Part shown: positions 26,224 through 63,853 of the stretch, piece after piece
Layout of the letters: each line of letters begins with the position of its first letter
Position numbering within the stretch: position 1 is the first letter of the stretch
Source of the DNA: Candidatus Omnitrophota bacterium
Lineage (GTDB): Bacteria > Omnitrophota > Omnitrophia > Omnitrophales > JACROU01
Length of the DNA stretch: 64,000 nucleotides
Reading direction: 5' to 3'
Assembly: GCA_029261035.1 (NCBI GenBank)
Contig: JAJDCD010000025.1
Span: 66,926-130,925, forward strand
Notes under the pieces: generated by a model
Database searches by the model: none
Seen by the model: the letters and a program-made list of their open reading frames with translations, nothing else
What the model was told of the DNA's origin: nothing
Made by a program: the position numbers and the translations under genes

Positions 26224-26285
26224 TATATAAATTTGAATAAAAAAAGGATCCTCGACACAAACATTCGGGGATGACAATTGGGAAT

Positions 26286-26327
26286 GTCATTGCAATGCAT
26301 TGGACTTTGAGCCGTGGCAATCTCAGA
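26286..26327. repeat. Solo copy of the 42-nt gtcattgcNNN...gccgtggcaatctcag element
   Basis: It has the same ends as the inverted repeats bracketing the GIY-YIG gene at 49265-49306 and 49612-49653. Confidence 0.5.
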
Positions 26328-26373: not shown

Positions 26374-28383
26374 TTACTTCAGAACAACTTCCCTAGCCTT
26401 CTCTACCTTTAATTCGTCTTTAACAAGCTCCACGTAGGCACGTAAAACTTCAGCAACTGAGGTTGCTTGCGCTGCTCCTCCTCTAGGATAATGGATCTTA
26501 TTTCCATCAAAAACTTCCGAAATATACCCTAAACCAGCATCCTCCAAATGTTCCAAAATAGCATCCAACTGCTTTAACATTCTTCGTTTGATGGTTTTTG
26601 TTCTTCCATAAGCTCTCAAGGATCCAAAAATATAGGCCCCCATTAACCAAGGAAAAACACACCCCTGATGATATATTCGATCTCGCTCAAAAACATCCCC
26701 AATATAAACCCCTTTATATCTAGGATCTTCAGGCGACAAGCTTCTTAATCCATAGGGAGTTAAAAGATGTTCATCTATTTTTTTCATTACCGGTTTCCAA
26801 CGGCTAGTGGAAAGTACCGGAAAAGGAAGACTAATAGAAAATACCTGATTCGGTCGAATCGTATCATCGTTTTCTTTTTCTCCTACGACATCATACAAAC
26901 AAGTTTCTTTTCTATTCCAAAAACGTTCATTGAAATTTTCCTTGGTATTAAATGCAAAATCCCGATAAACACCGCTCTCTTTTTCATCTTTGAGTAAATT
27001 TGAAAAAAACTCCATAATTTTTAATGCGTTGTACCACAACGCATTTACTTCTACCGTTTTTCCATAACGACTGGTTACAGGTTCATTCCCCACAGCAGCA
27101 TCCATCCATGTTAAACGTGTATGTTTATTCCCAGCTTTTAACAAAAAGTCTTGATCCATCTTAATATCATCCCGAGCCCCCTCAATGTAAAATTTGATAA
27201 TCTTTTTCATGGCGGGATAAAGTTTCTTAGAAACTGTCAGATCATCCTCTGTTAATTGGTAATACTCATAGACTGCATTCACAAACCACAAAGAAGCATC
27301 CACAGAATGATAGTCGGGTGTTTCAGAATGGTCCGGGAAATAATTAGGAATCATTCCCTGACTCACATAACGCGTATAAGCTAACAACAACTCTTTCGCC
27401 TCTTCAATCCTTCCCGTAGACAATGTTAAACCAGGTAATGCTATAAAGGTATCTCTTCCCCAATCTTCAAATCTCGGATAACCCGCAATCACACGCTTCA
27501 ATCCATCTTTAGCTGTCACAATAAAACTTCTAGAATTCCTCCACAGTTGACGTATTGCAGGATTTGAAATTTCTTCAGGAATTTCATCTTGTTCTCTTCT
27601 AGCCTCTTCAACTAGTCGAATGCGTTTTAGATTTAATTCTTTTTTCTTTTTTGTCGTTGCCAACAAATACACTTCCGACTCATTCAAAAATGAATATATA
27701 AAGGAACACGGCTGAAATAAATCTTCCTCACTCTCAGAACCTCTTTCTTTTTCACCCACCAACTGTGCGTGATTAAACCACGAAAATGATTTGTCTAAAA
27801 TTACTGAGTTATGATAAAAATAAATTGGCGGCAGCTCTGAGTATGGGGATAAGGAAACAACACCTACCTGTGTCTTCAACTCAGAATTTAATTCCTTATT
27901 TTCAAAACCTAAACTATGAAATTCACGATAAGCTAACTTAGGTTTTACTTCTAATCTTATTTTTTCAGGGTCTCCTGACAGTAAACGATAAGTTATGACT
28001 GTTGAGTTTTCCCCTTGAATCATAAATACATTTTTTTCTATAAGAATGTCATCGATTTGAAATATAAAAGAAGGAAAAGGAGAAAGTAAAAATTTAGATA
28101 AGTGATTGTAACCTTTTGGAAAGACTTTGTCTCGATAGACATTGGTAGATAATTCATACTTCTTAGAACCCACAAAGACAACTTCTTCCAAATGACTTAA
28201 AAGAACGAAACGCGCTCTTGGTGGCTGAGTTGCAGCAACAAGCAAACCATGATATCTACTCGTATTTGCACCAATCAGTGTTGAGGACGCATAACCCCCA
28301 ATCCCATTGGTCTCAATCCACTCTCGTTTTATCGCCCAATCAAAATCTTTGCACGCTTCTTTATCAAAAGACAAAGTATTCAT
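26374..28383 (-). CDS. Glycogen debranching enzyme (amylo-alpha-1,6-glucosidase family, archaeal-type GDE)
   Basis: 669 aa. GDE_C-like segments include GAAQATSVAEVLRAY, NALWYNALK, WFVNAVYEYY and HQGCVFPWLMGAYI. Confidence 0.7.
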   Translation of the reverse strand: MNTLSFDKEACKDFDWAIKREWIETNGIGGYASSTLIGANTSRYHGLLVAATQPPRARFVLLSHLEEVVFVGSKKYELSTNVYRDKVFPKGYNHLSKFLLSPFPSFIFQIDDILIEKNVFMIQGENSTVITYRLLSGDPEKIRLEVKPKLAYREFHSLGFENKELNSELKTQVGVVSLSPYSELPPIYFYHNSVILDKSFSWFNHAQLVGEKERGSESEEDLFQPCSFIYSFLNESEVYLLATTKKKKELNLKRIRLVEEARREQDEIPEEISNPAIRQLWRNSRSFIVTAKDGLKRVIAGYPRFEDWGRDTFIALPGLTLSTGRIEEAKELLLAYTRYVSQGMIPNYFPDHSETPDYHSVDASLWFVNAVYEYYQLTEDDLTVSKKLYPAMKKIIKFYIEGARDDIKMDQDFLLKAGNKHTRLTWMDAAVGNEPVTSRYGKTVEVNALWYNALKIMEFFSNLLKDEKESGVYRDFAFNTKENFNERFWNRKETCLYDVVGEKENDDTIRPNQVFSISLPFPVLSTSRWKPVMKKIDEHLLTPYGLRSLSPEDPRYKGVYIGDVFERDRIYHQGCVFPWLMGAYIFGSLRAYGRTKTIKRRMLKQLDAILEHLEDAGLGYISEVFDGNKIHYPRGGAAQATSVAEVLRAYVELVKDELKVEKAREVVLK

Positions 28384-46489: not shown

Positions 46490-49180
46490 TTATACCAATT
46501 CTTCTAAGGTTTTTTTTTCTTCTTGAAAAACCTTTTGCTTCTTAAGGGATTCTTGTAGTTTCTCTACTTCTTTCTCATACACTTCCTTAGGAGCATTATT
46601 TTTAAATTTATCATTCGATAATTTTTTTTCTAAAGAATGGATATAAGCATCCACATTATTCAAACTTTCATCCACCACTTTTTTTCTTTTTGCAATATCA
46701 ATATCCTGGCTTGCATCCACATAAAGAATAATCTCTTTCAAAACACCCACTTTAAACCATTTTCCTTTTTCTTTTTGAGAACTAATAAATTGAACTTCTT
46801 CTGCATTCGCTAAAAGCTTAATTTCAGAAGCCAAACCTTTCACAACACTATCCGCAGACTCTAGCTCACAAGCAATATGAATTTTATCTCTCGGAGCTAC
46901 ATTGTTTTCAGCCCGAAAGTTTCTCAGAACTGTTGCAATTTCTTGCAACAACTCCACTTTTTGAATGGATTCTTCATTAATCAAATCATGGTTCGTTTCA
47001 GGCCATTGACTTAAAGAAATAGATTCTCCTAAGTCTTTATTGCACAAAGCTTTAAGCTTCTGCCAAATTTCTTCTGACTGAAAAGGCATGATAGGATGGA
47101 TTAACCTTAAACTTTTCTCAATTACATGCAACATCACTTTTTCTGTTAACTGTCGTTCTCCTTTGGAAATGAGGTCTTCTCCCTCAGAAGTTAATTTTGG
47201 TTTAACCAACTCAATATACCAATCGCAAAATGCATGCCAAAAGAAATGATATAAATCACTAGCAGCATCATTAAAACGATATACTTCTAAAGCGAAATTC
47301 ACTTTTTTAATTGTGCTGTTGAGTTCGGCTAAGATCCATTCGTCAATCAAAGTTAGATTCTTCAATTCAGATTCAGACAATTCAAAGTCCTCTAACTTTT
47401 CAGATTCTAGATTCATAAATAGAAATCGGCAAGCATTCCAAATCTTATTAGTAAAATTTCTTCCAATTTCAAACTTATCCTTACTTAGATAAGCATCTTG
47501 CCCACTCCCTGTAATCATCATCAAACTAAATCGAAGAGCGTCTGCTCCAACTTCATCAATCACGTCTAAAGGATCAATCGTATTCCCTAAAGATTTTGAC
47601 ATCTTAGTTCCGTCTCCGTCCCGAATCGTTCCATGAATATTAACTGTCTTAAAGGGCTCTTTACCCAAGAATTCACAGCCAGCCATAATCATACGCGCAA
47701 CCCAAAAGAAAATAATTTCTGAACCCGTAACTAAATCTGTTGTCGGATAAAAGCGCTTAAGGTCTGGAGTCTCATCAGGCCAACCCAATGTAGAAAAAGG
47801 CCATAACCAAGAAGAAAACCAGGTATCCAAAACATCTTCATCTTGTCTTAAGTTCTTACTCTTACATTCTTGACACTCTGTTACATCTTCTCGAGAAACA
47901 TTAATATGTTCACAATCATTACAATACCAAACAGGAATACGATGTCCCCACCAAATCTGTCTAGAAATACACCAATCCCGAATGTTTTCCATCCAGTTTA
48001 GATAAACTTTCGTCCAACGATCAGGAATAAACTGAACTCGCCCTTCTTGAACCACCTTAATTGCTTTTTCAGCCATAGGTTTCATCTTAACAAACCATTG
48101 TTTCGAAAAATAAGGTTCTATTACGGTATCACAACGATAACAATGCCCAACGGCATGCTGATGAGGTTCTACTTTGAGAAGCAATCCTAATTCTTCCAAG
48201 TCTTTTACTATTTTCTTTCTCGCTTTAAAACGATCCAACCCTTGGTAGGCTCCACCCGCTTCATTAATAGAACCGTCTTCATTCATTACATTAATAAACT
48301 CAAGGTCATGACGTTTACCTATCTCAAAGTCGTTAGGGTCATGTGCTGGCGTTACCTTAACTACACCTGTTCCAAACTCCTTATCGACAAAATCATCTTG
48401 AACAACAGACAACTCACGATCCACAAGAGGAAGGTTTAATTTTTGTTTTACTAAATCGGAGTAACGCTCATCGGTAGGATTAATAGCAACAGCCGTGTCC
48501 CCCAACATCGTTTCAGGACGCGTTGTAGCAACAACAACAAACTTATCTTTGCTATCTTTGATCGGATATTTAATATGATAAAGAGAACCCTCACTATCTT
48601 TATGAGGAGCTTCTTCGTCTGAAAGAGCCGTATGGCATCGAGGACACCAGTTAATAATGTAATGTCCTTGATAGATTAACCCTTTTTCATAAAGACGAAC
48701 AAAGGTTTCTCGCACTGATCGAGACAAACCCTCATCCATCGTAAAACGTTCGCGAGTCCAATCACAAGAGGAACCTAAATGCCTTAATTGCTTCGAAATG
48801 GTAGACCCATGTTCTTCTTTCCACTTCCAGGTCTCTTCGAGAAAAGCTTCTCGCCCTAAATCATGACGTGTCTTCCCTTCCTTAGCTAACTTTCTCTCAA
48901 CTACATTTTGGGTCGCAATACCCGCATGATCCATTCCAGGCATCCAAAGTGTAGGCTGTTGTTTCATACGATGCCAACGGGTTAAAATATCTTGAATGGT
49001 ATTATTGAGAGCGTGACCCATATGTAAAATTCCGGTCACATTAGGCGGAGGAATAACGATAACAAAAGGGTCTAGATCTAAATTTTCATTAGGACAGAAA
49101 TAACGAGATTTTTCCCAAACTTTATACCAACGCGTTTCAACGTCTTTGGATTTATATATTTTATCGAGTTCTATTTTCAT
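46490..49180 (-). CDS. valS: Valine--tRNA ligase
   Basis: 896 aa. HIGH region PPPNVTGILHMGHALN. KMSKS motif present. C-terminal coiled coil. Confidence 0.9.
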   Translation of the reverse strand: MKIELDKIYKSKDVETRWYKVWEKSRYFCPNENLDLDPFVIVIPPPNVTGILHMGHALNNTIQDILTRWHRMKQQPTLWMPGMDHAGIATQNVVERKLAKEGKTRHDLGREAFLEETWKWKEEHGSTISKQLRHLGSSCDWTRERFTMDEGLSRSVRETFVRLYEKGLIYQGHYIINWCPRCHTALSDEEAPHKDSEGSLYHIKYPIKDSKDKFVVVATTRPETMLGDTAVAINPTDERYSDLVKQKLNLPLVDRELSVVQDDFVDKEFGTGVVKVTPAHDPNDFEIGKRHDLEFINVMNEDGSINEAGGAYQGLDRFKARKKIVKDLEELGLLLKVEPHQHAVGHCYRCDTVIEPYFSKQWFVKMKPMAEKAIKVVQEGRVQFIPDRWTKVYLNWMENIRDWCISRQIWWGHRIPVWYCNDCEHINVSREDVTECQECKSKNLRQDEDVLDTWFSSWLWPFSTLGWPDETPDLKRFYPTTDLVTGSEIIFFWVARMIMAGCEFLGKEPFKTVNIHGTIRDGDGTKMSKSLGNTIDPLDVIDEVGADALRFSLMMITGSGQDAYLSKDKFEIGRNFTNKIWNACRFLFMNLESEKLEDFELSESELKNLTLIDEWILAELNSTIKKVNFALEVYRFNDAASDLYHFFWHAFCDWYIELVKPKLTSEGEDLISKGERQLTEKVMLHVIEKSLRLIHPIMPFQSEEIWQKLKALCNKDLGESISLSQWPETNHDLINEESIQKVELLQEIATVLRNFRAENNVAPRDKIHIACELESADSVVKGLASEIKLLANAEEVQFISSQKEKGKWFKVGVLKEIILYVDASQDIDIAKRKKVVDESLNNVDAYIHSLEKKLSNDKFKNNAPKEVYEKEVEKLQESLKKQKVFQEEKKTLEELV

Positions 49181-49264
49181 ATTTTACTTAATAGTGAGTC
49201 AAATGTCTGAGATTACTTCGTCGGCATTTAATTCAACTCCTCGTAATGACAATCTCTCTGAGTC

Positions 49265-49653
49265 CGTCATTGCGAGCATCAACAAAAGATGCGTGGCAAT
49301 CTCAGGAGTAATGGTTATAAAGTTTCGTAAAGATCATTAAATTCTGGATTAAACTTTTGAATTAACTCTAATTTCTTTTTTCTCGATCCTGCTTTTATTT
49401 GCTTTTCCCTCTCTATTGCAGTTCTAATATCATCTGCTACTTCAAAGTAAATTAACTTATCCAAGTTATACTTTTTAGAAAAACCATCAGTGAGCTTTTT
49501 CTTATGCTCAAAAATTCTTTTCTTAAGATCGCTGGTAACACCCGTATAGATTGTAGTGTTGTTCTTATTTGTTAAGAAGTATATATAACCTGATTCATCC
49601 ATTTTTCTATGCCTGAGATTGCCGCGGCCTTTTTGTCGCTACCTCGCAATGAC
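49265..49653. mobile_element. Candidate miniature mobile element: a GIY-YIG nuclease gene bracketed by 42-bp terminal inverted repeats
   Basis: Left arm, 49265-49306: gtcattgcgag-N14-gcgtggcaatctcagg. Right arm, 49612-49653, is the inverted gtcattgcgag-N14-gccgcggcaatctcagg. Both ctcagg ends face the ORF. Solo copies of the arm occur at 26286, 56561 and 57815. Confidence 0.45.
49315..49602 (-). CDS. Small GIY-YIG (URI-domain) nuclease of the UPF0213/COG2827 type
   Basis: 95 aa. Begins GYIYFLTNKNNTTIYTGVTSDLKKRIFEH, where GxIY...YTG is the GIY-YIG core. It is the size of stand-alone URI nucleases. Confidence 0.75.
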   Translation of the reverse strand: MDESGYIYFLTNKNNTTIYTGVTSDLKKRIFEHKKKLTDGFSKKYNLDKLIYFEVADDIRTAIEREKQIKAGSRKKKLELIQKFNPEFNDLYETL

Positions 49654-49677
49654 GAAAAACGAGACTGAGCCGCTTTT

Positions 49678-51243
49678 CTAAATCTTTTCACCCTTGAGCA
49701 ATTTGTATTCCACAGCTTCGACAAGGGCTTGCCAGCTGGCTTCGATGATGTTTTCGGAAACACCCACTGTAGTCCAAGTTCCTTTTTCGTCTTGGAATGT
49801 GATGAACACACGCACTGTCGCACCGGTACCTTCAGCTTCATCGATGACACGCACTTTAAAATCCGTTAAATGAATTTTTTTGATTACAGGATAAAACTTA
49901 GAAAGCGCTTTTCTCAAAGCATTATCTAATGCATTAACAGGACCATCCCCATCTGCTGCTGTATGCTCTACAGCTTTACCTATTTTCAACTTTAATGTTG
50001 CTCGACTTGTGATTTTACCTTCTTCACTTTTTTCATCATGCACATTAAATTCAACCAACTCAAAAAATTTCTTTTCTTTCCCTGTCATTTTTCGCATTAA
50101 CAACTCAAAGGAAGCATCTGCTGCCTCAAATTGATAACCTTTACTTTCAAGTTCGTAGACTTTCTCTAATATTTTCTTGGTCTCTGGGGATTCTTTATCT
50201 AATCCCAAGGACATCTCTTTTGATTTGATCAACACATTAGATCGTCCTGATAATTCAGAAACTAAAAAACGTGTATTATTACCCACACTTTTAGGAGAAA
50301 TATGTTCATAGGTCTTCGAGTTCTTCATCATTGCATTGACATGAACACCCCCCTTATGAGCAAACGCAGAACGTCCAACATAGGGCTGGTTATTTTCAAA
50401 AGGCATATTGCAGATTTCTGCGATATAACGACTTAACTCTGTCAACTCTTGCATTTTTGACGCTGCAACTGTTGTAACCCCTAACTTAAAAACAAGATTA
50501 GGGATAACGCTGATTAAATTTGCATTTCCACACCGCTCTCCATAACCATTAATCGTTCCCTGAACCTGAGTCGCTCCGGCTTGAACTGCAGCGATTGAAT
50601 TCGCAACACCCAAATTACAATCGTTATGACAGTGGATCCCTATTTCTGTAGACACTTGAGTTTTAACCTCAGCGATGATTGCAGCAATTTCAGAAGGCAA
50701 GGTCCCTCCATTCGTATCACAAAGCACTAAATAACTCGCACCACCTCTTTCAGCCTCTTTCAATGTCTTGATTGCGTATTCTGAATTTTCTTTATACCCA
50801 TCAAAAAAATGCTCTGCGTCATAAATCACTTCCATACGCTTGGACTTCAAATATTTAACGGAGTCGTAGATCATGCTTAAATTTTCTTTCATTGAAGTTT
50901 TAAACACTTCCTTCACATGAAAATCCCAACTCTTTCCAAAGATGGTAACCACCTCAGCTTTTGCTTCCACTAATTTAGCTAAGTTTGCATCCTCAGAAGC
51001 CTTGATATTAGGCCTTCTCGTAGAACCAAAAGCTGCAACTTTGGCCTTTTTTAACTTTAATTTTTTCACTTCTTTAAAGAAACTCATATCCTTAGGATTA
51101 GAGCCTGGCCATCCGCCCTCGATGTAATGAACCCCAAATTGATCTAATTTTTTGGCAATCTTTAGCTTGTCATCCAAAGACAAACTCATCCCCTCTCCTT
51201 GGGAACCATCTCTTAATGTTGTATCGTATATTGTTACCTTCAT
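49678..51243 (-). CDS. cimA: (R)-citramalate synthase-type LeuA-family enzyme
   Basis: 521 aa. Motifs IYDTTLRDGSQGEGMSLS, HCHNDCNLGVANS and a C-terminal LeuA-dimer-like region. It is distinct from the canonical leuA at 20604. It clusters with the thr genes, which fits threonine-independent 2-oxobutanoate synthesis. Confidence 0.6.
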   Translation of the reverse strand: MKVTIYDTTLRDGSQGEGMSLSLDDKLKIAKKLDQFGVHYIEGGWPGSNPKDMSFFKEVKKLKLKKAKVAAFGSTRRPNIKASEDANLAKLVEAKAEVVTIFGKSWDFHVKEVFKTSMKENLSMIYDSVKYLKSKRMEVIYDAEHFFDGYKENSEYAIKTLKEAERGGASYLVLCDTNGGTLPSEIAAIIAEVKTQVSTEIGIHCHNDCNLGVANSIAAVQAGATQVQGTINGYGERCGNANLISVIPNLVFKLGVTTVAASKMQELTELSRYIAEICNMPFENNQPYVGRSAFAHKGGVHVNAMMKNSKTYEHISPKSVGNNTRFLVSELSGRSNVLIKSKEMSLGLDKESPETKKILEKVYELESKGYQFEAADASFELLMRKMTGKEKKFFELVEFNVHDEKSEEGKITSRATLKLKIGKAVEHTAADGDGPVNALDNALRKALSKFYPVIKKIHLTDFKVRVIDEAEGTGATVRVFITFQDEKGTWTTVGVSENIIEASWQALVEAVEYKLLKGEKI

Positions 51244-51378: not shown

Positions 51379-52605
51379 TTATATTACTGTTTTTCTACGA
51401 CTTAAACCAAATGCACTGTGTATCGCTCGGACAGCTGCTTTTCCTTTTTTACCATCCACGACACAAGAAATTTTAATTTCAGAGGTTGAAATCATTTCGA
51501 TATTTATTTTCTTTTTTGCAAGCGTGCTAAACATTTTCGCAGCGACACCTGAATGCGATTTCATACCCACACCCACCAAACTCACCTTTGCTATATTCTT
51601 ATCCACTTCTACCCCGCTCGCCTTTACAATTTTGGCTGCTTGATGGATGACAGGAAGAGTTCTTTTCAATTCCGATTTAAATACGGTAAATGAAATATCT
51701 GTAAAATTGGTCGTGGATTTATTTTGAATAATCATGTCCACATTCACATCACTTTTAGCGAGCTTCTCAAATACCTTAGCAGCAATCCCTGGAGTATCAG
51801 GAACTTTTAACAAAGTAATCTTAACTTCATTCTCTGTAATAGTAACTCCACTAACGAGCACTTGCTCCATTTTCTTATTCTCCTTTGTGATCAACGTTCC
51901 CGGATTATTGTTCATACTACTTCGAACCATAATCGGAACATTATATTTTTTCCCAACTTCAACTGAACGAGACTGCATTACTTTCGCGCCTAAAGACGCC
52001 ATCTCGAGCATTTCTTCATAACTAATCATATCCAACTTGCGTGCATCTTTAACAATACGAGGATCTGAAGTATAAACCCCATCCACATCTGTATAAATTT
52101 CGCATAAGGAAGCTTTTAACACATGCGCCAAAGCAACCGCTGTTAAGTCCGAACCTCCACGACCTAGAGTTGTAATCTCATTCTTAGAGGTGCTCCCTTG
52201 AAAACCTGCTACAATAACAATCTTACCCTTTCTCAATTCTCTGCGAATACGGTCGGTATTAATATCAACAATTTTGGCTTGCCCGTGTTTTTCATTTGTT
52301 GTTATTCCAATCTGCAAACCTGTCATCGAAACAGCATCTTCACCTAGCTCATGAATCGCCATTGCCAAAAGAGCTACAGACATCTGTTCTCCAGTCGTCA
52401 GCAACATATCCATTTCACGTTGGTTCGGAATCTTAGCGACTTGGTGGGCTAACGAATTTAATTCGTCTGTTTTTCCAGCAGGAGCAGAAACAACAACAAC
52501 CACTTGATTCTTTTTACGTTTTGTACGAACAATCCGTTTGGCTACACTCTTAACTTTTTCGATGTCTCCAACAGACGTACCACCATATTTTTGAACAATA
52601 ACCAT
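51379..52605 (-). CDS. Aspartate kinase, monofunctional, with ACT domains
   Basis: 408 aa. Motifs VQKYGGTSVG and VVVVSAPAGKTDEL. Confidence 0.85.
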   Translation of the reverse strand: MVIVQKYGGTSVGDIEKVKSVAKRIVRTKRKKNQVVVVVSAPAGKTDELNSLAHQVAKIPNQREMDMLLTTGEQMSVALLAMAIHELGEDAVSMTGLQIGITTNEKHGQAKIVDINTDRIRRELRKGKIVIVAGFQGSTSKNEITTLGRGGSDLTAVALAHVLKASLCEIYTDVDGVYTSDPRIVKDARKLDMISYEEMLEMASLGAKVMQSRSVEVGKKYNVPIMVRSSMNNNPGTLITKENKKMEQVLVSGVTITENEVKITLLKVPDTPGIAAKVFEKLAKSDVNVDMIIQNKSTTNFTDISFTVFKSELKRTLPVIHQAAKIVKASGVEVDKNIAKVSLVGVGMKSHSGVAAKMFSTLAKKKINIEMISTSEIKISCVVDGKKGKAAVRAIHSAFGLSRRKTVI

Positions 52606-52635: not shown

Positions 52636-53832
52636 TTATTTTTTAAGGAGCGTCGGAAGAATCTTATATGCATCGTTAACAACCACTTCAGACTCTGCGG
52701 CTTCAGCTTCAGTAAATATATTCCCGCCAGCAGACTCTATTCCCTTACCAGCAACTACAAAAGGAACACTAGAACGAAAATGCGTTCGTGTATTACATGA
52801 AGTTGAGTGATCCGGCATAATCAAAACACGCGTATCTGGATTCTCTTCTAAATACCGTCTTACTGGACCTACAATCTTAGAGTCAAAATCTTCAATTGCC
52901 TCTACCTTTAGTTTTGGATTGCCTTGATGCGCTGTTTCATCCGTAGCTTCCACATGGATATAAATAAAATCTTTCTCTTTCAAACTATTTAATCCAAATT
53001 CCACTTTTCCTTCATAGTTCGTATCCACGTAACCTGTAATGTCTGGTACCGGCAAAATTTCCAACTCCGCTAAACGTCCAATCCCACAAACCAAGTCCAC
53101 TGCAGAAACGATTGATCCTTTGATTCCAAAACGAGATTCAAAAGTCTCTATCTTAGGCATTACCCCTTGCCCCCAAAGCCAAATCATATTTGCCGGATTC
53201 TCATTTAAATCCACACGAACTTGATTGATCTCATGATCTTTTAAATGAATTTTAGCTTTTTCCATAATATCTTTTAAAATATCAGAACCATTTCCTGTCG
53301 GCCAATGGTCTTCAATCGATTGATCCTGAATATCATGAGGAGGAACACATTCGGCAGATAATCCTTTAATTCCTGCAGAATCCTTGATCACTGCAATATG
53401 CCTATATTGAATACCAGGATAAAGTGTAATTTTTTCAGAATCTATTTTTCCTTTTAAAAAATCTACGAGGGTATGAGCTTCTGTCGTACTGATATGCCCA
53501 GCACTGTAATCGGCCATTTTTCCATCCGCATCGGTTACTAAGTTCATCCTAAAAGCAACTTCACCCTCATTTAACTTAATTCCCATATTAGCGGCTTCCA
53601 AAGGAGCTCTTCCCGTATAACATTCTTTTGGGTTATAGCCCAAAATAGAAAGGTGCCCTACATCAGAACCCGGAGACAAACCTGCAGGAATCGTATCCGC
53701 TCGACCCATTCGTCCGTTTTCGCAAAACCAAGTTAGGTTTGGCATATGACTCGATTCTAACGGGGTCTTTCCACCCAAAGCTTCGCAAGGTTCATCACTC
53801 ACACCATCTGGAACTAATACAATATATTTCAT
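52636..53832 (-). CDS. Cofactor-independent phosphoglycerate mutase, archaeal type (apgM-like). It sits in the thrB position of the threonine operon and is a candidate non-orthologous homoserine kinase.
   Basis: 398 aa. Motifs MKYIVLVPDGVSDEP and PDHSTSCNTRTHF. It lies between aspartate kinase and thrC. There is no GHMP-type thrB in the window. Confidence 0.65.
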   Translation of the reverse strand: MKYIVLVPDGVSDEPCEALGGKTPLESSHMPNLTWFCENGRMGRADTIPAGLSPGSDVGHLSILGYNPKECYTGRAPLEAANMGIKLNEGEVAFRMNLVTDADGKMADYSAGHISTTEAHTLVDFLKGKIDSEKITLYPGIQYRHIAVIKDSAGIKGLSAECVPPHDIQDQSIEDHWPTGNGSDILKDIMEKAKIHLKDHEINQVRVDLNENPANMIWLWGQGVMPKIETFESRFGIKGSIVSAVDLVCGIGRLAELEILPVPDITGYVDTNYEGKVEFGLNSLKEKDFIYIHVEATDETAHQGNPKLKVEAIEDFDSKIVGPVRRYLEENPDTRVLIMPDHSTSCNTRTHFRSSVPFVVAGKGIESAGGNIFTEAEAAESEVVVNDAYKILPTLLKK

Positions 53833-56487: not shown

Positions 56488-56560
56488 TAAGTTAAACAAA
56501 AAGAACAATTATAGGCTAATGGGTGAAGTGTGAAGCACTCTATACACTTGCCCATACTGT

Positions 56561-56599
56561 GTCATTGCGAGGCATTGGTAATGAAGCCGTGGCAATCTC
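56561..56599. repeat. Solo copy of the gtcattgcgag...gccgtggcaatctc 42-nt element
   Basis: The sequence is gtcattgcgaggcattggtaatgaagccgtggcaatctc. It is the same family as the GIY-YIG inverted repeats. Confidence 0.5.
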
Positions 56600-56608
56600 T
56601 ATCTCTGA

Positions 56609-57214
56609 CTATTTTTCCTTCAATATTTTCTTATGAATTTCCAGCAAAGGTTGGATATTACCTTGATCTGCTTCTTTTAATGCTGCTAGATAGGTCTTTC
56701 TAAAGGTCTTTTCGATGAACAGTTCATCCTCAGGCCATTCCAAGTAAGCTCCCAATTCACCTTTTAAGTAAAGGTTGGTAATTAATCGAGCCCACCTTCC
56801 ATTCCCATTACTAAAAGGATGAATCCAAACAAGTCGGTGATGCAAAAGAGCAGAAATCTCTATAGCATCTCTACCCTTCTCAACCCAATAAGAAAAATCC
56901 TCTTCTAGCTTTTTAAGTTCCGTAGAAATCTTATAAGGTTCAACACCCACATTAAACCCTACACTTCTAACTTTCCCTGCCCAATTCCAAACATCACAAA
57001 ACATATCTTTATGAACCCTCAAGAAAAAATGCATATCATATTTAACAGCTTCTTTAGAACTCAGGTTTAAATAATACTTCGTCAATGCTTTATTGATATT
57101 AATAAACTCAGCTTCAAACAGCTCCTCCCTTGTTGATAAATCTTGCTTTAGCCCAGAAATATCATCCAAAGGCGTCGCTCCTAATGGAGTTGATTGACTT
57201 AATTTTCTCGCCAT
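56609..57214 (-). CDS. Fic/Doc-family protein (Fido fold, candidate AMPylator)
   Basis: 201 aa. Fic motif IHPFSNGNGRWARLITN. Its start overlaps the upstream HTH gene by 16 nt. The pair resembles the HTH plus Fic pairs found on mobile elements. Confidence 0.75.
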   Translation of the reverse strand: MARKLSQSTPLGATPLDDISGLKQDLSTREELFEAEFININKALTKYYLNLSSKEAVKYDMHFFLRVHKDMFCDVWNWAGKVRSVGFNVGVEPYKISTELKKLEEDFSYWVEKGRDAIEISALLHHRLVWIHPFSNGNGRWARLITNLYLKGELGAYLEWPEDELFIEKTFRKTYLAALKEADQGNIQPLLEIHKKILKEK

Positions 57215-57690: not shown

Positions 57691-57842
57691 ATATGATATA
57701 TTTCAATATATATTTATATATTTTAATACTTCCCATATGGGCCCGGGCCTGAATGAGGAGGGCCTGAACGAGGTGCTAAATAGAAGAAAAGGTCATTGAG
57801 AGGCTTTAACAAAAGAGCCGCGGCAATCTCGGGGAATTGGAT

Positions 57843-57894
57843 AAAGGGGACAGGCAACTTTTCTATTTGTTAAAAAAAGTAGCCTGTCCCCTTT
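57843..57894 (-). terminator. 13-bp-stem hairpin immediately after the stop codon of giant gene 2
   Basis: The stem is aaaggggacaggc / gcctgtccccttt. The 27-nt loop contains a T-run. The hairpin overlaps the TAA at 57893-95. Confidence 0.35.
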
Positions 57895-60800
57895 ACGCTG
57901 CCGCCGCTACAAGCTCTTCAGCTTGGAACTGGGCATACACCTTATTTAATAGGGTTGTAATGAAACTGGCCCCAATAACCCATTCTTGACCATCAGGCTT
58001 GAAGCCGGCTTTGAGAAAAAGCTCCTCTCGAAGATCAGGGTAATTGGCTAATTGACGTAAGAGGGCTACGACCTGGACAGGATCTACTCCATTACCTGAC
58101 AACACTTCTAAGTCAAGACGTACTCGATCTCCGTTACTGAAAATCATCTGGAATACATTTTCGTTTGGACTCACCCAAATACCTGGCACCTCATATTTTC
58201 TTAATGAAGCTCTAAAAATTTCTGGATTCAAAAGCTCTCGACGCACATCTTTAAGTTTAAATTGTTTTCCAGGTAACTTATATAGAGCTTGAAGAAACTC
58301 CGGCTTACCTCTCCCCTCCCACGTTACCATCAACAAATCTTTTTTCTGCATCATGCTATTAAACTGAGATGCACTTCTTTCAGGGTCGTCCACATGACTT
58401 AAAATGATGTCATCCACGATCAGTGGAATGGGTTTATTGACTTCAGCTTCTAGCAACCCCGAAACTTCCAAAGATAAATATTGAGTCATCACCTCTAAGG
58501 ATTGATTAAAATCTATAATACGAGGATCTATGATTCGATCTACTGTATCTTCCAAAACTCCCATACGAATAAGTAAACTTTTAATAACCTCTAATGGAGA
58601 ATTTGGCATAAATAAGATTTGCCCTGCAAAGGCTTGAGCAACTTGAATCATTCCTTCAACCGAAACATCTCGCGCTTTAATTTGAGTTAAAGCAGGTTCT
58701 GCTCCCAAACTCTGCGCTTCAGCTCTGAGCCATTCTTCTTCCGGACCACTCAGTTCGTTCGCCTCATCTCCAGACTCTCGTTTCCATAATTCTGATAAAG
58801 TTTTTAACTGGTTTATAACTAAATCAAATCCTATACCTTCCTCTTTTTCTAGAATCATCAAAACCTCTTCCCCTCTTTTTGCTTTGATTAAATTTGCTCC
58901 ATATTTACCCTCAATAAACCATCTTAAAAAATTATTTTGAAAATCAACTTTTTTACTAATATCCTTCTCAGCTAACAACGTATCAAAAATAACAGAAAAA
59001 GCTTTTTCAATTCTTTCCAACTGTTTTAGTTTTTTATTTTCATCTAATACTGAAGGCATAGCTAAGAAAAGAAAAACCACTAAGGGTAAATAGCGCTTTT
59101 CTTCTTTGGCCAACCTTATAATTTGATCTCTCAAAAATGAGTCTGTTGCATATCCAAATTGAACCATCTCAGATAGATGGGAAAACACCTTAGGCAAAGG
59201 ATCATCCACATAAGGAACATAAAAACGATATATCAGAATTATAAACTCAATATTAAATATAGGGTGACGAACACCCATTTGTTCTTCTAATAAGATTTGA
59301 TTCCATATATGAATAGCTCCGGATAAACGTCTAGCTCTAACATTGGTCAACAACTCCTTTAAACCATCAAGTAATTCGTCCAAAGAAATGGTCACACGTC
59401 GTTTTGAAATGCTTGTAACCATTTCTTGTATTGCTTTGATAGAGTTTCTTGACAAATCTTTATCATGTTCAGCTATAAACTTCTGCCAAATTCTAAAAGT
59501 GTTAATATCATGAATGAATTTATACTCAAATAATACTTCTAAAAGCCTTAGTATTTCTTCCCCTCTAAAAAAGGTCTCAAATCCAAAAATTTTGGACTCA
59601 GCATCTGGTTTAAAAAATGCTCGTTGAAATTTTTCATCCAGTTTTGTTGACGGGCCTATTATCTGAGTCAAAGAAGAATTATCATACTTTTGTCTTATAT
59701 TCGAGTACGCCCCTAAACTCTGCGCATCCACTCTTAACCACTCAGGTTCCTCTCCTTCTGACTCAATACTTTCGAACGGCCCTTCTTTTCCCCAAACATC
59801 TGCTATTTGCCTTAGCTGTTCTAAAACTTTTTCCTCTCCAACAGCATCTTTTCTTCTTATAATCTCTAAAACCTCCTCCGTTCTAAACATTCCGTTAGAA
59901 CTTACTGTTAATCGTTCCCATACATCTAATCCTAATCTAGGCTCCTCCATACTCTCCATAAAAATCAAATATTCCATTAGAAAATTCGGATCTAATACTC
60001 GGCCACTCCTTTCCACCTGTTCAAGAAAACTACCAACAACTTCAAAAGAAGAAGAAATTGTAAAAATGTCATTCATTTCTACCACCTTACTGAGCCTTTC
60101 CCAGAGATCAGAATGGAGAACATCCTTATCTATCAATTCTTTTTTTATCAAAAAACCTAGGGTTCTTAACAGAGTAAAAGTACTTGTAAAAGAATCCTTG
60201 TTCAAATGAGCAAACCTAAATAATAAATTAATATCCAAAACTTGTTCATCAGCTCTCCCTGACTTCACAGCCACCCCCAACTCTACAAGCTGCTCAAAAC
60301 TGCCCATCTCCCGCAAATCATAATATTGAGCCATTATAATGAACAGTTCCTCATTCCATAATTTTTCTGGAATCCTCTCCTCTGCTATGCCGGTTTCCAT
60401 CCGTAACAAATCCTCTATAAGAGGTTGTATTTCCTTTGAATTCACCTGAACAAGCGCTTCCAAAAAATCTAAATTAAATCTTTCTATCCTTCGTCTTTTC
60501 TCTAGCAGGGAGTCTCCTAACTGTTCGATAGCTTGAAAAGACGTGATTCTATTATCCCTACTCCCTTTACTAACTATTTCAAAAATTCTTTCTATTTTTT
60601 CTAATTCACTTACATCTTTAAAAATTTCTGTTAAAACGATAAATGCCTCCATAGCCGCTTCTTCATCTTCAAGCACTTCAACTAACCCAGAAAAGTCCTG
60701 CTCAAACGCTTCCCACTCCATGTCCAGCCCCTCTAAAAGACCAGCCTCTTCATATCTATCACGAGCTCCTAAACTTTTTGCAGAAATGATGACGGGTGCC

Positions 60801-63800
60801 ACATCAATCAATCTCTCAACTATCCCATCTACTTCTTCCTGAGGGGCTGTAATCATTCTTAACGCTTCAACGGCTCTCGTCTTTAGGTCTGAGCGTATTT
60901 CATTTAAATTTCCGGTTTGACGATTTCTTTGGGTCCATCCAACAACATCGTTTAAGTTGGCTTCTAGATCTTTTTTTGTTTCATCACTCATTTCGTAGAA
61001 TACGTCTGGTGCATCAATCACAAAGCTGCGTCCAAACTCAGCGAAGGCGGATGTGTTTGTGAAGTGAGGAAAAGGAGTTCCTTGCACACGATCTGCAATG
61101 AACACCGTCATTTTAGAGGATTCAATGACAATTCCCGTCCCTACACCATCATCAATCGTAGAAATTTTAAAAGGTCCAACCTTTTTCCACTCTTTTCGCT
61201 TAGCTCTTTCGATTGGAAAATCGGTGCGCACCACATGGGAATGAATTTGGGCTTGGCTCGCTCCTCCCCGTGGAGGGTCTGCAATGTCTTGGTAGTGCCA
61301 GCCATTCATTGCCATTTTAAAACCATTTTGACCAAACTCTTCTTTGGGAATCATCAAGACATTAAAAGAATTTCCTTTTTCTGAAATCAGCTGTGTCGTC
61401 TTCGCAATAAGTGCGGCTAACTGCTGGTCTTCAACAGAGTCAGTTTGTATGACATTACTATTGGTATTCAATTCGTTTACGGCTGTAATAGCGTCCCGTA
61501 TATGTGTTTGTTGATTCCACTCTTTTTGATGAACAACATCGTCTGCTCTAGAAAAAGTCATATGGTACGGTTGGTCTTCGTCATACAAACCTTCTCTTAG
61601 TGGCCAAATGGCATAAGGATTAAACGCAAACCACCATCGATTCCCACTAGGACCCTCCCATCGAAGTCTAAATTGTTTTTCATTTGCTTTCATTCGTTCG
61701 GGGTAAAGCACTTTCATGACAGGTGTGTCTTCGTTGATTTTTTCTTTTTTAACTCCGGTTCGATTGGGTCTTTTTGCTCGTGCCACATTCTGCACAAAAA
61801 TAAACTCTGGATCCTCCTCTAACCCTACAGGCAATCCCCCTAGATAGGTTTTAGGAGATTCTTCTTCTGGAAAATAAAGTGCGTATTCCACTGTGTTTCC
61901 ATCTTCCATAATTTTTAAAAAATCTCTTCTTGATTTATCCATTTGTAAATTTAAAAAAGCTCTAACAGCATCCGACAAATACTGGAAATAATTTGCCCTT
62001 AATTCCGGCTCTCCTGGAACAAAAGGACTAACCGACTGCACTCTTAATGAAGCGTTCTGTCTAAGCGCTTCAAACGCTAGTACAATGTTTTTAATAATAA
62101 AATTGCTATTACTAACAGGAGCTCCCAGCGAAGCCGCTGAACTCAAATAATCATTACTAAAATCAATAGGAGCTGGTGTTGCAAGCGTTAACGCCACAAC
62201 AGCTTCTAACACTCTTTGTTTTCTATCTTTAGAATACCTCGAATGCATCCCACTTAAATCCAAAGATAAAGGCGCTCCTATGTTCGATTCGGAGATTTTA
62301 TTTAAAGTAGGAATAATTGATTTCAAATAAAGGTTACGACTATAATCAAAAGCTTCTATTTGTGGAGAGAGCGAGACAACGGAATACCCTTTCTTGCCAA
62401 GCAAGTCTTGAACCCCTTCACTATGAAAACCTCCTGTTATCAAAATTCCCCTATCCTCTTTTCTTGTTTTCATATGTTTAAGCATTCGTTGAACAAACTC
62501 ATTCTCTCTTTTCTCTGCCAAAACATAGAACTGGTGTGCTTTTTTGAAGAGAAGCATCATGGATTCCGTAGATTTAAAAAACGTCTTTTCTTGCAATAAT
62601 TTTTGAACATCTAATTGTAGCTGGAGTGGTACAGGACGAAGGCTTTCTTTGAAGAGCGTCGTATATTCTTCTCTATTTAATTCCAAAATCAAAAATCGTT
62701 TTAGAGAAAGGTAGAGTTGGTTCAGTTGCATGATATTCTTTTCTTCTGCTGTGCTGGTCAATTGAGCCGCTAGCATGTTTTCTAATAACCTAAGCTCTTC
62801 AAACAAACCTTGTGAATTAATTTCGGATTCGAGAATCTGATACTGAACCCATCGTGAAAAAGCCTCTAATTTAGGTGTTTCAACCCCTTTTTCCATAAGC
62901 TGCTCTACAACTTCTTCAAATAAAAACCGTGGGAACTTGATCTCACTCTCTACCCCTTCTCTCATACGATTAAGCCAAGTCTCAAATTGGGAATACAGTG
63001 ACGCACTTAAGTGAGGTTGAATACTTTCTAAAAACTGATTTGATTCTTTAAATGCTAAACTGAAATTAACTTTAGATTCGATAGACTTCATCGAAAACAA
63101 TCGAACAAGGTTAGGGTAATCTAATTGGTGGACGGGATCATCAAAGTTAATTTGAAGTGCTTTTTGACTGTACTTCTTTAAAGTTTCCAAATAAGAATAA
63201 AGGTAATCTGAATCTTTATGATACTTACGCCATTCCTTTACATAAAGTTTAAGTTCATTAGAAAAATAACGATTTTCTAATTGCATTAGTTTTATTTCCA
63301 CATCCTTCATCCATTCGGATGACATGGATTGGTTTTCTATCACATATTGAAACAACTGAAGGTCCTCATTGTAAATTTGAGAATCTTCAACTCCAAAAGC
63401 TTCAATGGGCTGAGCATTTTCTTGAGAAAGCAAAAACATCTCTGCGCCTGTAACAACTCCTTCCTGCATGAGTTGATCCGCCACTTCTAAATTAAATTTT
63501 TTATTCGGAGAAAAATGAAACAAGGAGGGATCTAACTTCTCTGTCCCTGCCTCTAAATACAACGTGGAGACTTCTTGAGACTCCGTAAGGACTTGCACCA
63601 TTTTTTCTATTTGTTTTTGCGCTTGATAATTACTGTGGACATCTTGGATATGAAAAACAATACCTTTGGGTTTGTCTGGCACATTAGAATAAGTCACCCT
63701 TCCTAACTCGGGTGGCATCACATCAGAAAAAAGAGAGGTTGTGGAAGAAGTTTGACGTAGAACTTCTCTAGGTTGCGGTGCTTGCGCCCACAAACAGCTG

Positions 63801-63853
63801 TTGAACGTAAATACAACTGCTACTATAAGTGTAGTCAGCTTATTAAAATTCAA
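57893..63853 (-). CDS. Giant secreted modular protein of 1986 aa, a paralog of the 4668-aa protein. It shares the N-terminal domain and has four A-x-S-L-G module boundaries.
   Basis: The TTG start has the same nucleotide context as its paralog. The signal peptide is MNFNKLTTLIVAVVFTFNSCLWAQA. Shared motifs include HIQDVHSNYQAQK and ILITGGFHSEG. Confidence 0.85.
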   Translation of the reverse strand: MNFNKLTTLIVAVVFTFNSCLWAQAPQPREVLRQTSSTTSLFSDVMPPELGRVTYSNVPDKPKGIVFHIQDVHSNYQAQKQIEKMVQVLTESQEVSTLYLEAGTEKLDPSLFHFSPNKKFNLEVADQLMQEGVVTGAEMFLLSQENAQPIEAFGVEDSQIYNEDLQLFQYVIENQSMSSEWMKDVEIKLMQLENRYFSNELKLYVKEWRKYHKDSDYLYSYLETLKKYSQKALQINFDDPVHQLDYPNLVRLFSMKSIESKVNFSLAFKESNQFLESIQPHLSASLYSQFETWLNRMREGVESEIKFPRFLFEEVVEQLMEKGVETPKLEAFSRWVQYQILESEINSQGLFEELRLLENMLAAQLTSTAEEKNIMQLNQLYLSLKRFLILELNREEYTTLFKESLRPVPLQLQLDVQKLLQEKTFFKSTESMMLLFKKAHQFYVLAEKRENEFVQRMLKHMKTRKEDRGILITGGFHSEGVQDLLGKKGYSVVSLSPQIEAFDYSRNLYLKSIIPTLNKISESNIGAPLSLDLSGMHSRYSKDRKQRVLEAVVALTLATPAPIDFSNDYLSSAASLGAPVSNSNFIIKNIVLAFEALRQNASLRVQSVSPFVPGEPELRANYFQYLSDAVRAFLNLQMDKSRRDFLKIMEDGNTVEYALYFPEEESPKTYLGGLPVGLEEDPEFIFVQNVARAKRPNRTGVKKEKINEDTPVMKVLYPERMKANEKQFRLRWEGPSGNRWWFAFNPYAIWPLREGLYDEDQPYHMTFSRADDVVHQKEWNQQTHIRDAITAVNELNTNSNVIQTDSVEDQQLAALIAKTTQLISEKGNSFNVLMIPKEEFGQNGFKMAMNGWHYQDIADPPRGGASQAQIHSHVVRTDFPIERAKRKEWKKVGPFKISTIDDGVGTGIVIESSKMTVFIADRVQGTPFPHFTNTSAFAEFGRSFVIDAPDVFYEMSDETKKDLEANLNDVVGWTQRNRQTGNLNEIRSDLKTRAVEALRMITAPQEEVDGIVERLIDVAPVIISAKSLGARDRYEEAGLLEGLDMEWEAFEQDFSGLVEVLEDEEAAMEAFIVLTEIFKDVSELEKIERIFEIVSKGSRDNRITSFQAIEQLGDSLLEKRRRIERFNLDFLEALVQVNSKEIQPLIEDLLRMETGIAEERIPEKLWNEELFIIMAQYYDLREMGSFEQLVELGVAVKSGRADEQVLDINLLFRFAHLNKDSFTSTFTLLRTLGFLIKKELIDKDVLHSDLWERLSKVVEMNDIFTISSSFEVVGSFLEQVERSGRVLDPNFLMEYLIFMESMEEPRLGLDVWERLTVSSNGMFRTEEVLEIIRRKDAVGEEKVLEQLRQIADVWGKEGPFESIESEGEEPEWLRVDAQSLGAYSNIRQKYDNSSLTQIIGPSTKLDEKFQRAFFKPDAESKIFGFETFFRGEEILRLLEVLFEYKFIHDINTFRIWQKFIAEHDKDLSRNSIKAIQEMVTSISKRRVTISLDELLDGLKELLTNVRARRLSGAIHIWNQILLEEQMGVRHPIFNIEFIILIYRFYVPYVDDPLPKVFSHLSEMVQFGYATDSFLRDQIIRLAKEEKRYLPLVVFLFLAMPSVLDENKKLKQLERIEKAFSVIFDTLLAEKDISKKVDFQNNFLRWFIEGKYGANLIKAKRGEEVLMILEKEEGIGFDLVINQLKTLSELWKRESGDEANELSGPEEEWLRAEAQSLGAEPALTQIKARDVSVEGMIQVAQAFAGQILFMPNSPLEVIKSLLIRMGVLEDTVDRIIDPRIIDFNQSLEVMTQYLSLEVSGLLEAEVNKPIPLIVDDIILSHVDDPERSASQFNSMMQKKDLLMVTWEGRGKPEFLQALYKLPGKQFKLKDVRRELLNPEIFRASLRKYEVPGIWVSPNENVFQMIFSNGDRVRLDLEVLSGNGVDPVQVVALLRQLANYPDLREELFLKAGFKPDGQEWVIGASFITTLLNKVYAQFQAEELVAAAA

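Follow-up and report, generated by a model that had tools for sequence, protein, structure and literature searches.

Between cimA and valS in the window, the 64-kb stretch of DNA from a Candidatus Omnitrophota bacterium analyzed here, a 389-bp segment consists of a GIY-YIG nuclease gene with a ~40-nt unit on either side, in inverted orientation. The locus raises the question of what ties the gene to the repeats: whether the segment is a transposon, whether the gene is a passenger in repeats that exist independently of it, whether the enzyme serves repeats with a host function, or whether enzyme and repeats are partners in the manner of the REP/RAYT systems.

The nuclease gene and the repeat units of the window

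The gene lies at the cimA-valS junction inside a string of co-directional genes and is the only GIY-YIG gene copy in the 64-kb window, which holds six repeat units, all of them intergenic. The features are the following.

49315-49602, minus strand: stand-alone GIY-YIG gene of the UPF0213/Slx1-like clade (ORF list, Pfam, homolog alignment and AF2 model).
49612-49654, minus strand: unit on the upstream side of the gene and oriented like it (sequence, complementarity and fold); tag CGTC 49654-49651, 5' arm of stem P1 (ATTGC) 49650-49646, GAG 49645-49643, variable part 49642-49626, GCG 49625-49623, 3' arm of P1 (GCAAT) 49622-49618, tail CTC 49617-49615.
49265-49306, plus strand: unit on the downstream side of the gene, in the opposite orientation (sequence, complementarity and fold); tag CGTC 49265-49268, ATTGC 49269-49273, GAG 49274-49276, variable hairpin 49277-49292, GTG 49293-49295, GCAAT 49296-49300, tail CTC 49301-49303.
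49209-49251, minus strand: more diverged third unit (TGTCATTACGAG...GAAGTAATCTC), whose P1 stem, ATTAC/GTAAT, is compensated.
26285-26324, plus strand: solo unit (TGTCATTGCAATG...GTGGCAATCTC), intergenic, ~50 nt after the stop of the minus-strand ORF 26374-28383.
56560-56599, plus strand: solo unit (TGTCATTGCGAGGCATTGGTAATGAAGCCGTGGCAATCTC), intergenic, ~10 nt after the stop of the minus-strand ORF 56609-57214.
57791-57830, plus strand: solo unit with one mismatch in the 5' box (GGTCATTGAGAG...GCGGCAATCTC), intergenic, ~60 nt after the stop of the minus-strand ORF 57893-63853.

The 95-aa product matches Pfam PF01541 (GIY-YIG) over residues 5-77 (E=1.3e-15; 57.9 bits, cut-off 22.6); this is its sole Pfam match, and the HUH Y1 (IS200-like) transposase domain is absent. 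Residues Y8, Y19, R29, H33, E66 and N85 are invariant in an alignment of 25 homologs, a pattern compatible with an active enzyme; their catalytic roles are assumed here by analogy with I-TevI and UvrC. Searched against the PDB, the family profile matched two UPF0213 structures, 1ZG2 (E=2.8e-6) and 1YWL (E=0.017), and the AF2 model (pLDDT 87.7) gave 1ZG2 as best Foldseek match, followed by Slx1 and the N-terminal domain of UvrC. These nearest solved structures, together with the stand-alone form and a length within ~95-100 aa, place the protein in UPF0213/COG2827 (YhbQ-like). Fold and catalytic-type residues are shared with members of this group (1ZG2 BH0048, 1YWL EF2693, Escherichia coli YhbQ, Bacillus subtilis YazA) and with eukaryotic Slx1. 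However, identity to 1ZG2 is just ~24%, and Slx1 differs in needing Slx4 and in carrying a C-terminal zinc-finger domain. The catalytic domain and its C-terminal helices take up the 95 aa fully, and a separate DNA-binding domain is absent. Models of homing endonucleases matched weakly (TIGR01453, 24 bits against a cut-off of 56; PADLOC HEase, E=1e-3; phrog_7168), and identity as a defence system was rejected, the PADLOC matches being marginal only.

The gene has a GC content of 29% versus 37% for the window. In a scan around it, promoter-like matches did not exceed the shuffle expectation and none stood out, and terminator-like sites were not found; given these results and the co-directional gene string, the gene probably lacks a promoter of its own and is expressed through read-through from cimA.

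The bracketing by inverted repeats described in the initial annotation was confirmed, the outer 12-mer CGTCATTGCGAG (49265-49276) being perfectly complementary to 49643-49654. This outer block had been taken for an 11-mer, and the inner block, described as an identical 16-mer, is identical over a 12-mer (GGCAATCTCAGG); over the inner 25 nt (49282-49306 and 49612-49636) the arms are 80% complementary. Twelve nucleotides separate the tail of the upstream unit (49617-49615) from the ATG, and AGG (49304-49306) plus 8 more nt lie between the tail of the downstream unit and the stop codon (49315-49317). Solo copies reported near 26286 and 56561 were recovered at 26286-26324 and 56561-56599 (both plus strand). 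The supposed partial copy at 57815-57830 does exist, as a full unit (57792-57830, plus strand) with the single 5'-box mismatch, and the degenerate copy at 49209-49250 (minus strand) had been overlooked. The latter unit (49209-49251) ends 28 nt 5' of the valS ATG and forms a head-to-head doublet with the unit at 49265-49306, with 15 nt between the GTC cores. The six tags are CGTC (two), TGTC (three) and GGTC (one). The pattern GTCATTGCGAG-N10-30-GGCAATCTC has three matches in the window (49266-49303, plus; 49615-49653, minus; 56561-56599, plus) and none in 100 shuffles.

As isolated DNA strands the window units fold weakly (MFE -1 to -6.6 kcal/mol; z-scores -1.9 to +1.3) and their thermodynamic stability is not significant against shuffles, so the claim of structure rests on covariation. 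A search of 49100-49800 in Rfam at E<=10 returned two matches (E=3.4 and E=6.8, 14.3 bits) far under the gathering scores, and a known RNA family was excluded on this basis.

Repeat architecture and recurrence of the gene-repeat pairing

The window and 80 homologous loci together yielded 228 distinct units, from which the architecture of the repeat was derived. The consensus, yGT-C-ATTGC-GAG-[5-46 variable nt]-G(A/T/C)(A/G)-GCAAT-C-TC, comprises a tag (C/T)GTC, the 5-bp stem P1 (ATTGC/GCAAT), a conserved purine internal loop, a variable inner hairpin and a tail CTC. Within the tag, G occupies position -2 in 96% of the units and T position -1 in 99%, and position -3 has T (62%) or C (27%); in the tail +1 is T in 64% and +2 is C in 68%. 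The pair ATTGC/GCAAT was counted 228 times, ATCGC/GCGAT and ATTAC/GTAAT nine times each, ATAGY/GCTAT four times and ATGGC/GCCAT once, against five matches in total in reversed-sequence controls; ATTCT/AGAAT and ATCCT/AGGAT are additional P1 types of other lineages. At least four nested pairs from the base of the inner hairpin were found in 57 of 229 distinct variable regions, compared with ~3 in shuffles, with 24 different arm sequences among these 57. The inner hairpin closes with G-C in 165 cases and with A-T in 26, and the switch from G-C to A-T parallels that from GAG to GAA. Compensatory changes maintain both P1 and the inner hairpin across genomes.

GA-rich mini-hairpins (GCGAAGC, G-GA-GCGAAGC-GA-C) are common among the inner hairpins, and purine-rich loops are thus present on the tag strand only. 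The wobble counts (15 G.T, 8 A.C) give no clear pick of functional strand or nucleic acid, and a likeness of the GA//GAA loop to hammerhead or kink-turn motifs was ruled out on inspection of the consensus. Across loci, the solo units are oriented without preference with regard to the flanking genes (17 sense, 13 antisense); given this result and the lack of terminator-like sites, an RNA motif such as a 5'-UTR or terminator element is not supported.

Neighboring units mostly alternate in orientation: gene-less convergent doublets are common, with 83 pairs (gaps of 5-61 nt), the gene occupies the gap in 45 pairs, and 72 pairs are divergent. At most loci the inner hairpins of the two arms differ, which indicates that the arms are separate members of the family and not copies of each other. 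The initial annotation had treated the arms as IS-type terminal inverted repeats; each is instead a complete structured REP-like unit.

Homologs of the window protein number more than 4000 at 60-74% identity and were found in Omnitrophota, Elusimicrobia, Ignavibacteria, Chloroflexi, Zixibacteria, Thermodesulfobacteriota, Deferribacterales and Bacteroidota, a range that genome-contig loci extend to Cyanobacteria, CPR lineages and Proteobacteria. Protein identity between phyla is 55-70%, comparable with the 62-69% at which the CimA proteins of most other Omnitrophota match the window CimA, and combined with the patchy phyletic spread it suggests horizontal transfer. Only 15 homologs came from 2.9 million viral contigs, which makes phages an unlikely vehicle; these few, too, have tagged hairpins on their flanks, of additional stem types. 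The 33 plasmid records with homologs are nearly all chromids or mislabelled chromosomes.

The surroundings of the gene were analyzed in 80 homologous loci from named genomes of more than 10 phyla by means of two finders, a strict unit pattern (applied to 70 loci) and a stem-agnostic search for tagged hairpins (80 loci). With the strict pattern at least one unit lies within 150 nt of the gene in 62/70 loci and the (+,-) bracket is present in 35/70; units drop from ~65-75 per 100-nt bin beside the gene to ~1 beyond 600 nt. With the stem-agnostic finder a tagged hairpin lies within 150 nt of the gene in 72/80 loci and the bracket (+ upstream, - downstream) is present in 44/80, the hairpin density being 7.1 per kb near the gene versus 0.48 per kb more than 1 kb away, a 15-fold difference. 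At the level of sequence, these counts establish that the pairing of gene and repeat and its geometry recur in more than 10 phyla with lineage-specific stems.

A repeat-bounded unit had been thought unusual for this nuclease family, and it proves to be the rule for the clade.

The 3' box of the upstream unit (GCAATC) ends at a median of ~19 nt ahead of the ATG, that of the downstream unit in most bracketed loci begins 0-10 nt past the stop, and overlap of the stop codon with the tail of the downstream unit is frequent. N-terminal extensions ('MSLR...KQSQG') in some database proteins correspond to read-through of the upstream unit. The bracket is not universal: the heads of the units point toward the gene in Neisseria gonorrhoeae and, for the nearest units, in Azospirillum lipoferum, and in cyanobacterial loci the units are mainly downstream of the gene. 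Protein similarity loosely tracks the stem type of the repeats, but is confounded with taxonomy.

Kinship with the CGTC-tagged REPs

CGTC-tagged REPs were defined by Di Nocera, De Gregorio & Rocco in 2013 by an unpaired tag CGTC, also TGTC and with CCTC allowed, a stem of 8-9 bp with complementary A/T at the first and second positions, a loop of 4-5 nt and a short unpaired tail with the consensus CCA (PMC3733652). They are multicopy and extragenic, frequently form opposite-orientation dimers, occur in several phyla and take in the dRS3 repeats of Neisseria as well as RPE-4 and RPE-6 of Rickettsia; no associated enzyme was reported (PMC3733652). The kinship of the window repeat to this CGTC/TGTC-tagged superfamily had been overlooked in the initial annotation.

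The shared features are an unpaired 5' CGTC/TGTC tag, a stem that starts with A-T and then T-A, and an intergenic, multicopy occurrence in many phyla, often in opposite-orientation pairs. The window itself carries the tags CGTC, TGTC and GGTC and six extragenic units in 64 kb, including the inverted doublet 49209-49306. The stems, in contrast, diverge after the A-T, T-A start: the window units have a 5-bp outer stem, a GA//GNR internal loop and an inner hairpin of 5-46 nt, whereas the described families have a continuous stem of 8-9 bp and a loop of 4-5 nt. A short 3' tail is present but reads CTC in the window and in the consensus of the collected units, and CCA at the proteobacterial homolog loci; Omnitrophota, CPR, Chloroflexi and Cyanobacteria, in which the bipartite-stem family was seen, are not among the phyla listed for the CGTC REPs (PMC3733652).

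A tblastn search of the window protein against plasmid and chromid records gave matches largely in genera on the published CGTC list (PMC3733652), namely Sinorhizobium, Sphingobium, Azospirillum, Neisseria, Novosphingobium and Rhizobium, and at every inspected locus the homolog adjoins the host species' own CGTC REPs. The Sinorhizobium meliloti homolog is preceded by CGTC-ATCCTCGGG-cttga-CCCGAGGAT-CCA and followed by its inverse, and the homologs of Sphingobium, Novosphingobium aromaticivorans and Aeromonas lie in the same kind of bracket, formed by the CGTC REPs of each species. In N. gonorrhoeae the homolog is an intact 94-aa ORF within a dRS3 array; on A. lipoferum AZO_p3 the gene lies between sufB and sufC and is surrounded by 4 of the 7 CGTC-1 REPs counted on the replicon, and in Photobacterium a cluster of units is found downstream of the homolog.

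Sequence and genomic placement together demonstrate that the repeats belong to, or are kin of, the (C/T)GTC-tagged REP superfamily. On account of the 5-bp stem, the internal loop and the variable inner hairpin, those of the window are treated here as a related new bipartite-stem family and not as a member of CGTC-1 to CGTC-4. A literature search on the repeat sequence returned primer matches only. Searches linking GIY-YIG, COG2827, YhbQ or UPF0213 to REPs, REPINs or MITEs found no such report, including any repeat association for YhbQ or UPF0213; subscription papers were outside their coverage, so an earlier description is possible.

History of the locus and competing explanations

The proposal that the segment is a discrete insertion between valS and cimA holds in the junction comparison. 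In the nearest available relative (L081/L082, CimA 82% identical) the gene and units occupy the same junction, whereas the cimA-valS spacer is 107 nt in L083 (CimA 77%) and 26 nt in L084/L085 (CimA 75%), with neither unit nor GIY-YIG gene; L083 and L084 contain no unit in 13.5 kb each, which is not significant taken alone. Repeat copy number shifts between near-identical strains: L081 and L082 have identical CimA and differ by 2 versus 4 tandem units of 57-nt period. Between the window and L081 nucleotide identity is 72.6% for the gene and 74.4% for cimA, and dN is 0.18 and 0.13, respectively, with dS saturated. The gene has thus diverged about as much as cimA; it is old, vertically kept and under purifying selection, and it behaves as a long-resident gene, not as a hopping IS. 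Nostoc loci are likewise syntenic, and related cyanobacteria carry cassettes in unrelated contexts (L009 and L027).

The explanation favored here, at somewhat better than even confidence, is that of a REP-flanked nuclease gene in a REP/RAYT-like partnership whose enzyme would be a GIY-YIG nuclease of the Slx1/UPF0213 type. The gene would sit in the spacer of a tail-to-tail repeat pair while the same repeats are scattered as intergenic solo and doublet copies. The target of the nuclease would be the hairpin in its folded state together with the unpaired GTC tag, presented either by single-stranded DNA or by an extruded cruciform and recognized in the way that Slx1 and UvrC recognize DNA structure; the enzyme would nick there in trans, and host replication or repair would afterwards duplicate, convert or maintain the repeats. 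We infer this recognition and the driving or maintenance of the repeats from the arrangement. We know of no strand-transfer chemistry for a hydrolytic 95-aa GIY-YIG domain; a hydrolase cannot itself paste DNA, hence the copying step would have to come from the host.

In REP/REPIN-RAYT systems GTAG-tagged REPs are associated with an HUH Y1 transposase (PMC3116915). Common to both arrangements are a nuclease gene flanked by inverted repeats of a dispersed family (single-copy for RAYT, one copy in this 64-kb window), inverted doublets, long vertical persistence of the gene and a tag-plus-hairpin architecture. They differ in the tag, yGTC here versus GTAG, and in the enzyme: the window has no HUH Y1 gene, and the ~95-aa GIY-YIG hydrolase that would work in place of the HUH tyrosine transposase lacks access to strand transfer through a covalent intermediate. 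A broader proposition, to which we assign an even chance, is that the clade supplies the whole (C/T)GTC-tagged superfamily, including dRS3/NIME, RPE-4, RPE-6, the rhizobial REPs and the bipartite-stem family, with its dedicated partner enzyme.

It is unlikely that the gene is instead a free-standing homing-type endonuclease, that is, a selfish passenger that cleaves gene-less REP doublets and is copied in by repair, the repeats being independent and pre-existing. Some IS elements insert specifically into REPs, which offers a parallel, and the position of the gene, always in a tail-to-tail spacer, would make the gene-less convergent doublets (83 cases, with 5-61-nt spacers) its empty alleles. 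Like the free-standing GIY-YIG homing endonucleases (phage T4 Seg, I-TevI family), it is a small GIY-YIG gene with presence/absence polymorphism between conserved genes; the weak matches to TIGR01453 (under its cut-off), PADLOC HEase and phrog_7168, and the cyanobacterial cassettes in unrelated contexts, also agree with this idea. Such enzymes, however, combine a catalytic with a DNA-binding domain in ~200-250 aa, while the window protein ends with its 95-aa catalytic core and has no C-terminal DNA-binding domain, and its clade is rare in viral contigs and embedded in a dispersed repeat family. The units would furthermore provide just ~10-12 conserved nt of flanking homology per side, gene and host have diverged together, in synteny, in Omnitrophota and Nostoc, only one copy is present in the window, and the spread and cross-phylum conservation of the tag would be left unexplained.

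Less probable again is a housekeeping role, in which the repeats are host structural or regulatory elements (mRNA 3' stabilizers, supercoiling sites) whose hairpins or cruciforms are processed by the nuclease, its gene being placed there for autoregulation. All three solo units of the window do lie 10-60 nt past stop codons, the gene is under purifying selection in stable synteny, its nearest characterized structural relatives, Slx1 and UvrC, are structure-specific nucleases, and the cassette is tolerated within operons (cimA-valS, sufB-sufC). Yet close relatives that have the same operon lack both gene and repeats, the phyletic spread is patchy, with a cross-phylum identity of 55-70%, the GC content of the gene is below that of the window (29% vs 37%), and solo units lack an orientation bias relative to transcription across loci.

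The model of the initial annotation, an autonomous element with MITE-like derivatives, is retained in part, inasmuch as gene-less convergent doublets and solo units do occur, but the gene is present once in the window, in synteny and with no sign of hopping. Its strict form, a cut-and-paste TIR transposon with the GIY-YIG protein as transposase, is improbable and ranks below the housekeeping role. The inverted-repeat bracket with identical outer 12-mers, the L081 arms that match at 35/36 positions, the gene-less doublets and the absence of the element from the orthologous sites of two relatives are what would be expected of it. However, a search for a target-site duplication at the outer ends was negative, the flanks (...ctctctgagtc before the first unit, aaaaacgagact... 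after the second) being free of an adjacent direct repeat. Moreover, the inner hairpins of the arms usually differ, most dispersed copies are single units and not arm pairs, and a single gene copy in the window with vertical inheritance does not fit. The tandem duplications in L002 and in an S. meliloti fragment have the appearance of unequal recombination between repeats rather than transposition. No recognized transposase class is represented, and to our knowledge no bacterial DNA transposase is of the GIY-YIG class, the chemistry being hydrolytic, without strand transfer.

A coincidental association of the gene with a ubiquitous repeat, in support of which units also occur far from the gene, is refuted by the 15-fold enrichment beside it and the geometry kept in many phyla with different stems, and by the composite pattern absent from 100 window shuffles, and its probability is negligible.

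The REP/RAYT-like partnership favored above bears on a gap in the biology of repeats. REPs are among the commonest non-coding repeats of bacteria, and a cognate enzyme, RAYT, is known only for the GTAG-tagged half; the 2013 account of the CGTC-tagged half explicitly assigned it none (PMC3733652). The present data suggest that the nuclease is the missing partner enzyme of this 'orphan' superfamily: a 95-aa protein that travels with the repeats in more than 10 phyla is a concrete and easily purified candidate for CGTC REPs, dRS3 and RPEs, whose origin and maintenance become directly testable in the tractable S. meliloti and Neisseria. If confirmed, it would represent a second, independently evolved REP-nuclease symbiosis, based on a hydrolytic structure-specific nuclease versus an HUH transposase, and a new mechanism of repeat propagation or maintenance, and would provide a function for part of the large UPF0213/COG2827 'GIY-YIG nuclease family protein' group. 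Should tag and hairpin be recognized together, the enzyme may also find practical use as a small structure- and sequence-guided nickase.

Copy number and duplication around the nuclease gene

Two Omnitrophota relatives that carry the GIY-YIG gene and its hairpin repeat units at cimA-valS (L081 and L082) differ between this gene and valS (8100-8380 and 8100-8266, respectively) by exactly two 57-nt tandem units, each period comprising a 36-nt unit and a 21-nt spacer, despite the identity of CimA in the two assemblies. The difference reflects a recent gain or loss of copies through expansion or contraction of the tandem array.

Duplications also involve the gene itself. In Sinorhizobium meliloti (L086, 1186-1290) a duplicate of its C-terminal third lies between another CGTC REP pair, just upstream of the intact gene; in locus L002 the whole cassette (gene and bracketing inverted units) is duplicated in tandem with a 426-bp period, and L072 has two adjacent copies. 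The three cases are best read as products of recombination between the flanking repeats. Long regular arrays surround the gene in L073 and L037, with periods of ~180 nt and ~89 nt, respectively. In four loci of heterocystous and filamentous cyanobacteria (L009, L026, L027, L054) no unit occurs close upstream of the gene, and a convergent pair is found instead ~5-130 nt downstream.

The cimA-valS operon and neighboring features

The G+C content of the GIY-YIG gene (49315-49602, minus strand) is 29%, that of the window 37% and that of cimA 39%. Two relatives lacking the cassette have a different small gene between apgM and lysC (L084, 4274-4633; L085, 1295-1654), encoding a 119-aa member of the 23S_rRNA_IVP / bAvd four-helix-bundle family; this gene is absent from the window and from L081.

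51379-52605, lysC
52636-53832, apgM
57840-57890, strong hairpin (ggggacaggc...gcctgtcccc; loop A/T-rich)

The gene for the 119-aa protein is a second small-gene insertion polymorphism within the operon bearing cimA-valS. The empty cimA-valS spacer of another relative (L083, 7567-7673) holds a palindromic repeat unrelated to the units, cgaatgacgaatgacgaatgtcga ... tcgacatttgacattcgaaattcgacat. The hairpin, which lies just past the stop of a 1986-aa ORF (57893-63853, minus strand) and adjoins a solo unit, is probably the terminator of that ORF.

Units within coding sequences

A unit, GTCATTGCGAGACAGTCAACAAAGGAGTCGCGGCAATC, lies within a called 7340-aa LRR-protein gene of L081 (12775-12812), possibly as an in-frame intragenic insertion, which would resemble the Rickettsia RPEs. 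ORFs also extend into repeats in Aeromonas (L090, 992-1300) and at the N-termini of two database homologs of the nuclease (P0015 and P0089), gaining repeat-encoded tails or heads such as …DGSPPARG and MSLR…KQSQG. Many odd short extensions of database proteins are probably accounted for by these repeats.
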